NCBI GenBank assembly: GCA_023213195.1
Contig: CP096135.1
Coordinates: forward strand, 946,616 to 1,010,615
Source of the DNA: Sphingobacteriales bacterium JAD_PAG50586_3
GTDB lineage: Bacteria > Bacteroidota > Bacteroidia > CAMBQF01
DNA: 64,000 nucleotides
Direction: 5' to 3'
Both the position numbers and the translations under genes were made by a program. The notes under the pieces are model-generated. The model did not search any database. It was not told the DNA's origin and worked only from the letters and a program-made list of their open reading frames with translations. This document shows, one piece after another, positions 6,448 through 11,228 of this stretch (position 1 is its first letter; each line of letters begins with the position of its first letter).

Positions 6448-6578
6448 ATTTTTATGTTATGACAACAAATATAGCTTTAAATTATTTTATTTGTAATAAT
6501 AACTCATAATCGTTAACAAATTTGCATTATATATGTTCTTATTATACATTTGTAACAAGAAACAAACGTTCTTATACA

Positions 6579-6727
6579 CTGTGGGGTGATGAAACTATGG
6601 CAGACATGCCCTCCTGTCTCGGGGGTAGGGAGCTACGGGATAAACACACGATAATGGGTTGACCACAAAAAAATTCTATGTCGTGCGGCTAACCGCCCTG
6701 TGAAGGTTCGAACCCTTCCCCTACAGC
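6579..6727 (+). ncRNA. candidate structured small RNA of unknown class (closing helix plus tRNA-like T-arm), immediately followed by a strong intrinsic terminator
   Basis: 5' ctgtgggg pairs with 3' ccctacag. Internal hairpins gcgg-ctaa-ccgc and gaagg-TTCGAAC-ccttc (T-loop-like). No ORF. Followed by a terminator ~12 nt downstream. Confidence 0.25.
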
Positions 6728-6738
6728 TTAAATTGGAA

Positions 6739-6774
6739 AGCCCCTTAAGATTAGATACTTAAGGGGCTTTTTTA
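6739..6774 (+). terminator. intrinsic terminator
   Basis: agccccttaag-attagatact-cttaaggggct followed by tttttt. Confidence 0.65.
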
Positions 6775-6811: not shown

Positions 6812-7507
6812 ATGGCACATTTAGCGGTACACATTGCGGCCGCTTTTATTAAACGGGCAACAGCCGAAAAGAAAACTTTAAATAAGAAAAAATTGCAATG
6901 CCTGCTCTATTTTGCCCACGGTTATTCTTTAGCCCTTTACAACCAACCATTGCTGCAACAGCGGTTTGAAGTTTCTAAAAACGGGCCCGTTATACATAGT
7001 GTAGCACTTGTATACCGGCAACTAAATAGCGCCCATAAAAACATCAACTATAAAGTCGACTTTTCTTCTGATGTATTGCATGTAATTTTATTGGCGTGGA
7101 ATAAGGCAAACAGCCTGACTGAAAAAGCCTTTGTAAGACTAGCAACACAGCCCGGAACGCCATGGGCTAACGCAAACGCTCCGCAGCATAGCTCATTGTA
7201 TATTGATGATTCTGCTATAAAAATCTATTTTGAAAAGTGGTATATAACAGATGTTACATTGCCAACTAAAACATATCGTTATATTTTAAAAAATAAGCCT
7301 GTAAATTACCTGCATATACCGCTAAACGCCCTAATGTGCCCATGTTGTAAAACATCGCCGTGCAACGTGGCAAATGCCGCTATGCCGGCGCCTGTAGAAA
7401 AACCCAAAGCACACCAATACTTAACACCGGCAATGCCTTTGTTATTTGCTTATGGGTTGGTTCTTTTTAAGCCAACATTAACAATGAATAAAATATTATT
7501 TTCTTAA
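6812..7507 (+). CDS. Panacea (DUF4065) domain protein, PanA-like antitoxin candidate, with a ~80-aa C-terminal extension (Cys cluster plus hydrophobic helix)
   Basis: N-terminus MAHLAVHIAAAFIKRATAEKKTLNKKKLQCLLYFAHGYSLAL matches the DUF4065/Panacea core (KLQKLLYFAQG). Paralogous to the next gene. The extension beyond the point where the paralog ends (…YFEK) includes an in-frame ATG at 7334. Confidence 0.6.
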   Translation: MAHLAVHIAAAFIKRATAEKKTLNKKKLQCLLYFAHGYSLALYNQPLLQQRFEVSKNGPVIHSVALVYRQLNSAHKNINYKVDFSSDVLHVILLAWNKANSLTEKAFVRLATQPGTPWANANAPQHSSLYIDDSAIKIYFEKWYITDVTLPTKTYRYILKNKPVNYLHIPLNALMCPCCKTSPCNVANAAMPAPVEKPKAHQYLTPAMPLLFAYGLVLFKPTLTMNKILFS

Positions 7508-7582
7508 CCTTAATGTATTTTTTGTTACGATATAATTGATTATCATTACGGTGCTTAATTCTATATTTATTCCTGTTCTGTT

Positions 7583-8041
7583 ATGGCTTATAAAGCTATT
7601 GAAATTGCAGCCGCCTTTATTAAAAAGGGCAAGGCCGAGAAGAAACCTTTTAGCCAAATGAAGCTGCAATGCATGGTATACTATGCACACGGCTATTATC
7701 TTGCGTTAAATAACGAGCCCCTATTTACAGAGGCTATTGAAGCCTGGGAAATTGGCCCGGCTATACAAAGTATATATGGTATGTACAGGTTGATAGACCG
7801 CCTGCCAATTGCTGAGTGGCCCGATGATAACTTTGACATAGATTACGAACCTAAGACAATACAGGCAATTGATGCGGCGTGGGAGGCAGCTTTTAGGCTA
7901 ACATCAGACCAGTTTATAAAATGGGTAACAGCCAAGGGTTCGCCATGGGCAAAATCGTACTCACCCATACAGTGGACGCTTAACATTAGCAACGATACAG
8001 TTAAAAGCTATTTTGAAAAGGAAGTACTGCGGATGGCTTAG
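7583..8041 (+). CDS. Panacea (DUF4065) domain protein (paralog of 6812..7507)
   Basis: MAYKAIEIAAAFIKKGKAEKKPFSQMKLQCMVYYAHGYYLAL… The 152-aa domain-only form. Confidence 0.65.
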   Translation: MAYKAIEIAAAFIKKGKAEKKPFSQMKLQCMVYYAHGYYLALNNEPLFTEAIEAWEIGPAIQSIYGMYRLIDRLPIAEWPDDNFDIDYEPKTIQAIDAAWEAAFRLTSDQFIKWVTAKGSPWAKSYSPIQWTLNISNDTVKSYFEKEVLRMA

Positions 8042-9125
8042 TCTACTAAAATATCCTTTTTACGGATGTTAATCATAAACTCGCGGAAGATGATGCGCAG
8101 CACCGAATAGGTAGGTATAGCAACCATCATACCCACTACACCGCCCAATGTACCTGCCGCTAAAATCACAATAAAAATCTCTAGGGGTGCGCTTCCATGC
8201 TTTTAGAAAATATGTAGTTAGATAGGAACCAGTTATCTATAAACTGCACTACACTGTAAATTACCAACACTTTAAGGGCTATAGGCCACCACTCGCTTGC
8301 CCCCAAATTTAAATTAGTAGTAATGGCTATAACAATACCTATACCGTTGGCAATAAGCGGCCCAACATAAGGTATAAGGTTTAGCAGCCCAAATAGTACA
8401 CCCATAAGCAACGGGTTGCTTATACCAAAAACCCACATGCCTAATGATGCCAAGGTGGTAACAGCCAAAAATTGTATTAATAAACCCACCAGGTATTTTA
8501 CCAGCAGTTGCTTACTTTCTGTAAATATTTTAACTGCCTTTTTTTCATCCGTTTTAGGTATCATCATAAGCAGTACTTTCTTTAACAAACCTTCTTCTTT
8601 AAGCAGGAAAAAGGCGATAAAAAAGATAGAGAATAATGCAGCCACAATGCTACTTACAGAGTTAAACACACCCGATGCCATGGTTGTAACCTCGCCACCA
8701 CTAAACATATTTTTAAGGCTATCAACCACAAACTCTTTAAACGGCTTATCGTCGCCAATATTAAAACGGGTATAGTAGCCCTCCAATTGGTCTAACGGGC
8801 CTTGCAGGCTTTGCATTACCTGGTTGCGGTCTAGGTTGGCTATGGTGTTGGCCTCTTGAACCAGTACGGGAATAAATATGGATAGTATGCCTGAAATTAC
8901 GCCTACTATAATAAGCATGGTAAGCAACGCTGCCGCCCACGATGGTAGCGACTTACCTTTATAAATAGGTAGGTTATCAATTCTGCGGCATAAGGGGTCG
9001 GCTACAAGTGATAGCACCGCTGCGCAAATTATGTACATTAAAATAACCCTGAAAAACCAGCATAGAAAAACAACGGTGGCCAGTACAAGTAAGAATAATA
9101 CTATGCGGGTAAGGGTTATCTTCAT
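8038..9125 (-). CDS. AI-2E family transporter (UPF0118/PerM-like), with an apparent frameshift near 8185
   Basis: The 314-aa track ORF has the typical AI-2E topology. The true C-terminus (…ILAAGTLGGVVGMMVAIPTYSVLRIIFREFMINIRKKDILVD*) is read in another frame down to 8038, overlapping the convergent Panacea stop. Confidence 0.7.
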
Positions 9126-11228
9126 TTAATGGAGTATTATACGGCCTAAGATACCCGATAATTCTATTTTAACGTTATCTAACGTGCGTTGTTTTTCAAG
9201 CAGCGCCATTTGGTCAAACTCTTCGGTGGCAGTGGCAAGCTCATCTTGCACCTCGCGTATCATCTTTAAAATAAACTTCATTTTAAGCGAGTGCAAGGCC
9301 TTTTCTATACTTTGTTTTAGCACTACGTGCGATGTTTCTTCGGTAGCAACCTCTATGCGGTGCTTGGTGTACCAACGCTCGCTAAGGCCACTTTTTCCAT
9401 TACAAGGTCGCTGGCTACGCTCCGCACATTCGCATCGGGGTGGGCAGTAGGTTCAGGCACTTCAGGCTTTTGAATATCCAGAAAACCTTCATCATCCAAC
9501 AACACATCAGGAGTAATAAAAGGCAAGGGCAGTTCATCATCGTCAAACTCTACGGCGGGAAAGTATTGCTCTTCGGGGTGGCTTTGCAACGCAACGTAGC
9601 CGGTGTAAATGGCTTGATAAACGGGGTTTTGCATCAGCACCTCGTCGCGAGACAGTTCGTAAACTATAAAATCTCCGGCCAAAACGGTATGTACTTCTTC
9701 GTGTCGGCCATCTTCCGTTTTATGGGTAAAATAGAGTACTTTATCAGAGTGGCGCAGTAGTATGCGTATAATGTCTCGCTCCTGCCATTCGGGGTCGCTA
9801 AAGTCAACGGCTAAAAGTTCCTAGTTTTTGCCTTGTTGCTGTTGGTCGTCGTACCCTTCGCTCTCATGCTCTACAAATGCCTCTTTCAGGTGTTCGGCCT
9901 CGCGCTCTTTTTGTGTTTTAGTATAGCGTAGCTTGTTAACCTCGCGCAATAGCGTTTGCTCGTCTATGCCCGTTAAGCGGCTGCACTCTTTTATATAAAA
10001 CTGGCGTTGTATACCTTCGGGGACAATAGAAATAGTATGGGCAAGGTCTTTTACTAATGCCGCACGCTTAATTGGGTCGTTGCCAACCTCATCAATAAGC
10101 AAACTGGTTTTGAAAGAAACAAAGTCCTTAGCCGACTTACCAATATATTCTTTAAGCTCATCTATGCTTACTTTTTTGGCATACGAATCGGGGTCGTCGC
10201 CATCTGGAAAAAGCACTACGCGCACGTTCATGCCCTCTTCCAAAATCATATCTATACCACGGAAGGAGGCTTTGATACCCGCAGGGTCTCCATCGTATAA
10301 AATGGTAATGTTTTTGGTATAGCGGCTGATTAGCTTTATCTGGTCGATGGTAAGGGATGTACCCGACGATGCAACTACGTTTTCTACCCCCGCCTGGTGC
10401 ATAGATATTACATCGGTATAGCCTTCTACCAAATAGCAAACATCAAACTGGGTAATGGCTTTTTTAGCAAAATAGGCACCATAAAGCACCCGGCTTTTGT
10501 TGTAAATCTCACTCTCGGGACTGTTTACATACTTGGCCTGTGTTTTATCGGCTGAGTTTAACACTCTGCCGCCAAAGCCCAGTACACGCCCCGTTAAGCT
10601 GTGTATAGGGAACATTACACGCCCCTTAAACCTGTCGAATTTTTTATTCTCTTCTACTTTAACAATAGAAAGACCTGTTTTGGCCAAGTAGTCTAGCTTA
10701 TAACCAGCTTTAACAGCGGCATCGGTAAAAGCCGACCACTCGTTAGGGCTGTAACCCAGTTGGAATTTCTCAATTATATCATCCCTAAAGCCCCGCTCGC
10801 GGAAATAGGCTATAGCCAATAGCTTTGCCATTATCACTCTCCCAAAGTTGCTCGGTAAAATATTTTTGGGCAAAGGTGTTAACTACAAAAAGGCTCTCTT
10901 TCTCGTTCTGTTGCTCAATATCTTCGGCAGTAAGCTCCTTTTCTTCAATTTCAATATTATACTTTTTAGCAAGATAACGCAGGGCCTCGGGGTAAGTGGA
11001 GTTTTCGTGCTCCATTATAAAGTTTACCGAGTTGCCCGCTTTGCCGCAGCCAAAGCACTTGTAAATGCCTTTTGTCGGCGATACAGTAAAAGATGGGCTA
11101 CGCTCGTTATGAAAAGGGCAGTTGCCCAACATATTGACACCACGGCGCTTAAGGGCAACAAAGTCGCCAACCACCTCTTCTATACGGGCGGTTTCAATAA
11201 TGCGGTCTACGGTATCTTTAGGTATCAT
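9126..11228 (-). CDS. dnaG: DNA primase DnaG, reconstructed from four ORF fragments: two single-base frameshifts (homopolymers near 10832 and 9390) and one in-frame TAG (9821-9823)
   Basis: CHC2 zinc ribbon (CPFHNERSPSFTVSPTKGIYKCFGCGKAGN), Toprim (ILYDGDPAGIKASFRGIDMILEEGMNVRVVLFPDGDDPD) and a helical C-terminal domain ending just before the AI-2E start. Frames rejoin if AAA becomes AA at ~10832 and A5 becomes A6 at ~9390. Confidence 0.75.

Follow-up and report, generated by a model that had tools for sequence, protein, structure and literature searches.

In this study, we analyzed two tandem genes in a 64,000-nt stretch of the Sphingobacteriales bacterium JAD_PAG50586_3 genome (hereafter, the window), which encode a long and a short protein with the Panacea (DUF4065) domain, named here PanL and PanS. 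The reading that we favor, with a probability of roughly 0.55, is an orphan, vertically inherited and toxin-less Panacea pair, in which PanS would have a conserved binding role and PanL would be a dispensable paralog, made as one chain and carrying a probably metal-binding tail. The pair is confined to a small group of Bacteroidota, represented mostly by metagenome assemblies. What is new here is a tandem Panacea pair that is vertically fixed and lacks a toxin, one copy of which bears a novel extension at its C-terminus; the Panacea family itself is known as the hyperpromiscuous antitoxin domain of the PanAT toxin-antitoxin (TA) systems of type II (Kurata et al. 2022, PMC8832971), and about half of the DUF4065 proteins lie outside TA-like loci (PMC8832971).

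Domain assignment of PanL and PanS

The two open reading frames (ORFs), PanL at 6812-7507 (+ strand, 231 amino acids (aa)) and PanS at 7583-8041 (+ strand, 152 aa), are co-oriented and 75 nt apart, and PanL is identical to UPT68098.1 from the metagenome-assembled genome of this bacterium (4.16-Mb contig). Both proteins matched PF13274 (SocA_Panacea; 38.3 bits for PanL and 38.1 bits for PanS against a gathering cut-off of 25.7, E about 3e-9) and PHROG 1281 (aa 5-142 of PanL, E=7e-24; aa 1-148 of PanS, E=1e-28). This search, proposed by a first-pass annotation that had read both genes as Panacea proteins from the DNA letters, confirmed that reading. PanL and PanS share 40% identity over aa 1-146 (E=5e-39) and are thus paralogs. 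The GPV sequence, a conserved signature motif of the Panacea domain (PMC8832971), appears as NGPV at aa 57-60 of PanL, as GPA in PanS and as GPC in PanS orthologs; in an 89-sequence alignment, conservation reaches at least 90% at G58 and P59, and the third position varies. A Foldseek search of the AlphaFold2 (AF2) model of the Panacea domain against the PDB returned no significant structural neighbour (best E=1.6), and the PanS profile had no match among the PDB sequences.

PanS ends 6 residues past the YFEK sequence near the end of the domain, whereas PanL ends 89 codons past it, which leaves about 85 aa beyond the PanL domain end. As the first-pass annotation had read, this extension has an in-frame ATG at 7334 (codon 175), from which a Cys-containing 57-aa peptide (7334-7507) could be translated. 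The features of the locus are as follows; dN/dS is the ratio of nonsynonymous to synonymous substitution rates.

6812..7507, + strand: PanL, long Panacea paralog, single continuous coding sequence of 231 aa (ORF; PF13274 at aa 28-118; 228-aa orthologs conserved throughout)
6812..7255, + strand: Panacea domain of PanL, aa 1-148 (AF2; PHROG 1281; dN/dS 0.13-0.21; GPV at aa 58-60)
7238..7333, + strand: linker, aa 143-174, WY..D...P.KTYRYI.K..PV.YL, 5' of the proposed internal start (dN/dS 0.20-0.46)
7289..7369, + strand: ActB-like segment, about aa 160-186, with the Cys motif as its core (ActB profile match)
7337..7363, + strand: Cys motif C-x-[C/H]-C-K-T-x-P-C, aa 176-184 (invariance; dN/dS; ActB profile match)
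7364..7426, + strand: Pro-rich variable spacer, aa 185-205 (dN/dS 0.38-0.97; low-confidence coil in AF2)
7427..7507, + strand: C-terminal tail, aa 206-231 and stop codon, with a short hydrophobic patch (Kyte-Doolittle; its end enters the conserved DNA 5' of PanS)
7508..7582, + strand: intergenic conserved stretch, probable PanS promoter/operator (kept in 10 loci including PanL-less ones; function inferred)
7583..8041, + strand: PanS, short and putatively ancestral Panacea paralog, 152 aa (PF13274; present in all loci except L016 and L019)
6580..6774, + strand: tRNA-Asp-like RNA gene (6580-6726) and terminator (6737-6774), context only (near-invariant in 10 loci)

Conservation, gain and loss at the locus

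In all sufficiently long contigs, the genes follow one another as rnpA, yidD, S41 protease, Wzy_C, AsnC-type regulator (- strand), RNA gene, PanL, PanS, AI-2E transporter (- strand) and DnaG (- strand); the part from Wzy_C to DnaG is seen in about a dozen independent contigs. Between the window and locus L001, the flanking genes are 75-99% identical, PanL 52%, PanS 78% and AI-2E 53%. As judged from gene order and sequence, the locus is a core-genome position that is vertically inherited, and no mobile island. We also considered whether an island had once integrated at the tRNA-like gene and left the pair behind; this is unsupported, as no att-like repeat of the RNA 3' end was found in the 64-kb window.

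A toxin gene is absent from both sides of the pair, in agreement with the first-pass annotation. The convergent AI-2E gene, whose predicted identity was borne out by a PF01594 match, either adjoins PanS or overlaps it; a structured-RNA gene lies upstream at 6580-6726, as had also been read; and no third ORF, toxin-like or other, is conserved on either strand in about a dozen loci. Where PanL is missing, about 150-200 nt of non-coding, ORF-free DNA lie upstream of PanS. An antisense ORF (7496-7690) over the PanS 5' end recurs in orthologs; it reads a highly conserved stretch in the codon-aligned reverse frame, and we judged it to be a by-product of that stretch. Since there is no toxin beside PanS, any partner that it binds would be encoded elsewhere, or PanS would have an adaptor role as SocA does.

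The two genes differ in their distribution. PanS, which forms five 90%-identity clusters in 5.8e9 proteins and was found in at least two further loci by a scan of metagenome contigs, is present in every locus except those of the L016/L019 lineage, with 70-100% identity across the clade and a dN/dS of 0.02-0.12, also between genomes that have no PanL. The AI-2E gene defines two sub-clades, and PanL is found in both, indicating that PanL is old. It is absent from L006, L013, L015 and L010, and in L007 an internal deletion adjoins the surviving start codon (ATGGCATATGTAGC) and upstream region of PanL. By this sequence comparison, there have been at least three losses of PanL from loci that retained PanS. 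Conversely, L016 and L019 have PanL and no PanS between PanL and AI-2E. Over the C-terminal 107 aa of PanL, these two loci differ at synonymous sites with a proportion (pS) of 0.166 and at nonsynonymous sites with a proportion (pN) of 0.021 (pN/pS 0.13), indicating purifying selection; L016, the only contig in the PanS-less lineage that covers the site, has an in-frame TAG at PanL W96. The occurrence of PanL without PanS and of PanS without PanL argues against an obligate toxin-antidote pair. When the PanL profile was searched against 1.84e9 proteins, the PanS family was the next best match with 110 bits and the one after it scored 78 bits, so PanL and PanS are each other's closest relatives.

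Two further observations concern the pair. First, the synonymous divergence (dS) of PanL is 0.39-0.65 and that of the adjacent PanS 0.15-0.22 (between the genomes L001, L003 and L004), making the value for PanL two to three times that for PanS; this may stem from recombination or long-standing allelic lineages at PanL, or from strong constraint on the codons of PanS. Second, the gap between PanL and AI-2E in the PanS-less lineage (320-940 of L019 and 539-906 of L016) holds a sequence of about 90 nt, present twice in L019 (…AAAAGTGCGTGGAATGTCCGCGCGCGGTATGAATCTA.ATAATCCTGCGTAAG.AACCTCCGGCATTAATTTCGCAA…), which looks like a small repeat element in the place of PanS.

Comparison with known Panacea systems

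The pair resembles PanA in that both proteins exceed the PF13274 threshold and have the GP(V) signature, and the 152-aa size of PanS is typical. The 75-nt spacing and the conservation of the two genes are also as in a PanAT neighbourhood, yet the partner is a Panacea paralog instead of a toxin, and for this reason the locus is not a PanAT system. It further differs from PanAT in its vertically inherited core-genome position, PanAT being mobile, and in the placement of the accessory region, as the known ones of PanA (helix-turn-helix (HTH) and PAD1) are N-terminal and that of PanL is C-terminal and unrelated to them. PADLOC-DB component models did not match PanL, PanS or the tail.

SocA is a type VI antitoxin and the ClpXP adaptor for SocB in Caulobacter. 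It has the Panacea fold in common with our pair and sets a precedent for an adaptor rather than a simple inhibitor; the locus has no socB-like neighbour, and the scores against the SocA equivalog NF047745 of NCBIfam (40.6 and 57 bits) lie below its cut-off of 190.

The nearest outgroup Panacea proteins, P0012 and P0014, belong to canonical antitoxin-first pairs (341-1229 of L017 and 3001-3863 of L018) in which the Panacea gene overlaps a membrane PanT gene. The homologous partners are 145 and 130 aa long, their genes overlapping the Panacea gene by 14 and 4 nt. In each, the N-terminal half is charged and two long hydrophobic segments follow at the C-terminus, and the two share 28% identity (E=1e-8). 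With no Pfam match, they likely represent an uncharacterised membrane PanT family. The lineage of our pair may once have had such a membrane PanT partner, and none is adjacent now.

Coding constraint across the PanL extension

Independent assemblies show the long form of PanL (228 aa; range 228-231 aa) in five more sequence lineages (L001/L005, L003, L004 and L008). The alignment runs unbroken from the Panacea domain through the linker to the motif LMC.CCKT.PC, and all 89 stop-free codons stay in frame across all orthologs. To follow the constraint along the protein, we calculated dN/dS by the Nei-Gojobori method in the PanL frame, region by region. The values were 0.13-0.21 for the Panacea domain, 0.20-0.46 for the linker, which lies wholly upstream of the ATG at 7334, 0-0.19 for the Cys motif in five of the six informative pairs, 0.38-0.97 for the spacer, and 0.14-0.27 for the tail from aa 206 to aa 231 (L001 group only). 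The purifying selection on the linker indicates that translation runs on from the Panacea domain, and the regional pattern places the beginning of the constrained coding sequence at the domain and not at the ATG, which lies 32 codons after aa 143.

With the 89-sequence alignment, AF2 gave a block-mean predicted local distance difference test (pLDDT) score above 90 for most of aa 1-140 of PanL (72 for aa 71-80, and 88 for aa 141-150) and placed the last helix of the Panacea domain at aa 133-149. We used this run in place of one with a 4-sequence alignment, whose mean pLDDT was 50. In the tail, the model has a short helix of low confidence (aa 152-160) followed by coil from aa 161, with a pLDDT of 50-69.

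Among the Panacea proteins compared, the tail is restricted to this clade. We searched 1.84e9 representative proteins exhaustively with HMMER and obtained 2,458 Panacea matches; among the best 150 of them, the PanL cluster alone matches end to end, a P0011 fragment enters the tail, two other proteins reach profile positions 158-159 and the rest stop near 140. No free-standing homolog of the tail is present among these 150, and the tail matched no toxin family in Pfam, NCBIfam, PADLOC, PHROGs or the phage collection.

Cys motif and similarity to ActB

The core of the extension is a Cys motif. C176, C179, K180, T181, P183 and C184 are invariant in seven PanL sequences (the window, L001, L003, L004, L008, L016 and L019), position 178 is C or H among them, and the spacing C-x2-C-x4-C within "AFQPLMC..CKTAPC" is invariant. 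In a search of the PDB sequence set, a tail profile of six sequences matched ActB of the Flavobacterium johnsoniae Alternative Complex III (6btm_B, E=0.0044) and, more weakly, the 'Fe-S-cluster-containing hydrogenase' chain 6f0k_B (E=1.4), which we take to be Rhodothermus marinus ActB. Single tail sequences gave E=0.014 and 0.31, P0011 aligned over 58 residues to NrfC/PsrB (2vpw_B, E=0.36), and the reversed-sequence control had an unrelated best match (E=1.4). The JGI pipeline independently labels P0011 and P0158 as 'Fe-S-cluster-containing dehydrogenase/hydrogenase component'.

The ActB segment EKPGDNPQVAFQPVMCQHCNHAPC and the PanL segment EKPVDYLQLAFQPLMCPCCKTAPC have identical C-x2-C-x4-C spacing, and the L016 variant of PanL, CPHC, has a His at the corresponding ActB position. 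The likeness to these subunits (6btm_B, 6f0k_B and 2vpw_B) covers only a fragment of about 26-58 aa. Pfam Fer4 did not match the tail at E up to 10. A 4Fe-4S dicluster ferredoxin has two complete Cys motifs with eight ligands, whereas PanL has only C176, C/H178, C179 and C184. Because PanL lacks the C-P that follows in ActB and the cysteines of the other cluster, its tail is no complete dicluster ferredoxin domain. The spacing, and the Cys/His exchange seen at position 178, would suit a set of metal ligands, which we regard as suggestive and not strong evidence; by sequence, the tail core is a captured or convergent ActB-like fragment that may bind metal without being a ferredoxin domain.

The 3' end of PanL and the DNA upstream of PanS

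PanL has its stop codon in a DNA motif, ATTTCTTAAC, that is kept in all loci, and the PanL proteins of the window and of the L001 group end inside a common TTTCTTAAC DNA motif, which is read in one frame in the window and in another in the L001 group. Together with about 30 nt on its upstream side, the motif is also found 5' of PanS in the PanL-less loci L006, L010, L013 and L015 and in L007, which has only a PanL remnant. The presence of the motif in PanL-less loci indicates that the last PanL codons overlap older DNA that is conserved for reasons of its own, probably for the expression of PanS. Whether PanL is present or not, the element 5' of PanS reads …ACAAATCAGAT…CAATTTCTTAAC…ATTG.TTAATATTAC..TGCTTAAT and includes the palindrome TAATATTA (7490-7582 in the window, 6085-6166 in L001 and about 640-746 in L010). 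Its intergenic part, 7508-7582 (ATTG.TTA..ATTAC..TGCTTAAT), is conserved in 10 loci including PanL-less ones. From this conservation, the element is probably a PanS promoter/operator that the 3' end of PanL overlaps.

Two other origins of the extension were tried and rejected. First, a tblastn match through the PanS stop codon suggested a duplicated PanS together with the antisense 3' end of the AI-2E gene. Permutation tests were negative for this origin: over 18 tests, the read-through p-value went no lower than 0.03, none of the antisense comparisons gave p<0.05, and the DNA alignments were non-significant. Second, weak collinear tblastn matches (E=0.07-1) and an 18-nt repeat joining 6895 and 7430 hinted at a degenerate second Panacea domain; profile-profile comparison with HHalign found nothing beyond the common YFEKWY overlap.

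Proposed roles of PanS and PanL

In the reading that we favor, PanS would be the ancestral, strongly constrained copy, standing alone between the tRNA-like RNA gene and the convergent AI-2E gene. It would be a soluble binding protein whose partner is encoded elsewhere, or a SocA-like adaptor. PanL would be an old, faster-evolving and dispensable duplicate, made as one 231-aa chain, with a largely unstructured, basic tail of 85-89 aa that is a putative mosaic of three pieces. The first is a linker with a C-x2-C-x4-C knuckle, which would be derived from or convergent with the [4Fe-4S] segment of ActB and is most plausibly metal-binding. The second, the variable Pro-rich spacer, would serve as a flexible basic arm. 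The third, the terminal stretch, would overlap the pre-existing regulatory DNA upstream of PanS. Besides metal binding, we infer action in trans and a soluble, cytoplasmic location.

Several points weigh against this reading. The similarity to ActB spans a short stretch of about 26 aa and is of modest significance (E=0.004), and metal binding is a guess because only three to four of the eight dicluster cysteines are present. The tail models as low-confidence coil, which is not proof of disorder. The fast evolution of PanL and its raised dS form a pattern that is also seen in conflict and defence genes. Lastly, the pairing of the nearest outgroup PanA with membrane toxins makes an ancestral toxin-antitoxin role plausible.

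PanL as an effector

Fused single-chain TA systems exist, as exemplified by CapRel^SJ46 (PMC9712102), and some PanA proteins are themselves toxic in E. coli (PMC8832971). On these precedents, PanL could be a fused toxin-antitoxin or effector whose harmful or effector tail is held by its own Panacea domain, possibly with PanS acting in trans, a reading that we consider unlikely, though the most probable of the alternatives. PanL resembles CapRel in joining an antitoxin-type regulatory domain to a second module in one chain, and its dispensability and fast evolution (with a dS two to three times that of PanS), its repeated loss alone from loci that kept PanS (at least three times) and the TAG at W96 in the one covering contig of the PanS-less lineage would all suit an effector. 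Yet CapRel has an N-terminal toxSAS enzyme and a C-terminal antitoxin domain that is not Panacea, whereas PanL ends in an 85-aa low-complexity tail without toxin homology, and no recognisable toxin domain was found in the PanL chain. The tail is short and predicted to be unstructured, and its only PDB matches are to the ActB/NrfC iron-sulfur segment. Moreover, the constraint on the C-terminal 107 aa of PanL in L016 and L019, in the absence of PanS, indicates that PanS is no obligate antidote, and the equal constraint on PanS where PanL is missing indicates that PanS does not exist for PanL.

A more specific and rather improbable variant is that PanL is a new kind of single-chain effector, in which the Panacea domain would gate an ActB-derived Cys-knuckle tail acting as a mimic or as a metal/redox-sensing switch, and PanS would be a brake in trans. 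If this were true, the tail could for example interfere with or monitor the assembly of Alternative Complex III, and the locus would be a toxin-antitoxin-like pair with both partners of antitoxin descent.

The tRNA-Asp-like RNA upstream of PanL

The RNA gene upstream of the pair (6580-6726, + strand, about 147 nt) is near-invariant in ten loci whose neighbouring genes have dS >1. An exact match to the Bacteroidetes promoter consensus, TTTG-N20-TACATTTG, precedes it at 6521-6552, and its strong terminator lies at 6737-6774; the consensus occurs seven times in the window, one other occurrence being directly upstream of tRNA-Gly/tRNA-Leu genes. The RNA folds with a 7-bp acceptor stem, a D arm, an anticodon arm and a canonical T arm (GAAGG-TTCGAAC-CCTTC), and a 76-nt insertion (6626-6701) occupies the variable-loop position. 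When 6626-6701 was shortened to 3-22 nt, ARAGORN called tRNA-Asp(GTC) in 176 of 180 variants; the native sequence gave no ARAGORN call and matched no Rfam family at E up to 10, and a scan of viral contigs with the central segment of the RNA was empty. The RNA has U1-A72, G73 and U37, and both the U1-A72 pair and the presence of a pyrimidine at position 37 speak against its being an ordinary decoding tRNA. The gene may encode either the tRNA-Asp of this genome, carrying an intervening sequence, or a mimic of a tRNA.

The Panacea genes and this RNA could form one module, for example with the RNA as ligand, target or regulator and PanL expressed by read-through of the terminator. In favor of this, several of the toxins associated with PanA target tRNA (PMC8832971). 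The RNA lies directly upstream of the pair and in the same orientation in every locus that extends far enough, only 37-55 nt separate the terminator from the PanL ATG, and this gap has no exact Bacteroidetes promoter consensus. On the other side, this adjacency says little, because all the loci belong to a single narrow clade with an entirely syntenic neighbourhood. The RNA is equipped with a consensus promoter and a strong terminator of its own, PanS with a conserved upstream region, and the papers that we found report no Panacea-RNA association of this kind. We therefore regard a common module as very doubtful.

The 57-aa reading frame at 7334

The first-pass annotation had proposed that the 57-aa frame at 7334-7507 is a small membrane toxin, hidden in the PanL 3' end by fusion or stop-codon loss in a PanA-PanT pair; it would be translated separately and neutralised by the Panacea proteins. 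Small membrane PanT toxins are indeed known as clusters T3/T12 of Kurata et al. (PMC8832971) and also lie beside the nearest outgroup PanA genes; the peptide is likewise small with a hydrophobic region near its C-terminus, and the ATG at codon 175 is kept in six of seven lineages. The proposal is nevertheless largely refuted already. First, conservation and purifying selection in the same frame reach 32 codons upstream of the ATG, and the conserved 228-231 aa form is essentially the observation that the first-pass annotation had said would speak against a hidden toxin. Second, the distant relative P0011/P0158 (loci L016 and L019) reads PLVCPHCKTAPC, with CC replaced by HC and Met175 by Val (GTT), which is no start codon; a conserved start and conservation limited to the small ORF, the marks of an independent gene, were not seen at 7334. 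Third, the hydrophobic helix that had been read in the peptide did not hold up. The patch has only 10-13 residues, includes Pro and Lys, and differs between the window and the L001 group; its 19-residue Kyte-Doolittle maximum (1.37 for the window PanL, 1.27 and 1.06 for orthologs) is below the classical transmembrane threshold of 1.6, and AF2 predicted no helix there. Fourth, the peptide ends within DNA that is conserved for another reason and in a frame that varies by lineage. At last, it has no similarity to the genuine PanT partners, which are separate overlapping genes of 130-145 aa, and no independent conservation. From the sequence comparison and the model, the 57-aa ORF does not appear to be an independent gene, nor the tail a membrane-spanning toxin; the fallback of the first-pass annotation, an orphan tandem antitoxin pair, comes closest to the evidence.

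That the extension is an assembly artefact or functionless read-through of a lost stop codon is hardly credible: although yidD, AI-2E and dnaG of the window are broken into different frames relative to intact orthologs and the last 26 aa of the window PanL are unlike those of its orthologs, the long form is present in independent assemblies (JGI, ENA, Logan and NCBI), and the purifying selection on the linker and Cys motif refutes this for aa 143-205.

Neighbouring genes

The AI-2E gene (8038-9125, - strand) is the fastest-evolving neighbour, with 53-57% identity between the sub-clades against 75-99% for the other flanking genes. Its groupings disagree with those of PanS, as the window is nearest to L010 by AI-2E and nearest to L015 and L006 by PanS, which hints at recombination within the locus. 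In the window, the gene is frameshifted into 8181-9125 and 8038-8169. The frames of yidD (2182-2399), AI-2E (8038-9125) and dnaG (9129-11228) are all split relative to the intact orthologs in L001, L005 and L006, through either homopolymer-type assembly errors or real pseudogenisation, and other ORF calls in the window need care.

Implications

For annotation, the lesson of PanL is that a Cys cluster and a short hydrophobic patch after an in-frame ATG are insufficient to call a hidden toxin. PanL also illustrates how a C-terminal module may form, from an iron-sulfur-like protein fragment and former intergenic DNA. We judge the upstream tRNA-Asp-like RNA to be a stranger object than the Panacea pair itself. 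For the family, known for moving among mobile toxin partners, the locus is a clean natural case of the half of DUF4065 proteins that lie outside TA loci, PanS being core-fixed and strongly constrained, with no adjacent toxin. Its duplicate PanL with a chimeric tail, repeatedly lost and once surviving alone, makes a toxin-independent role of Panacea directly testable.

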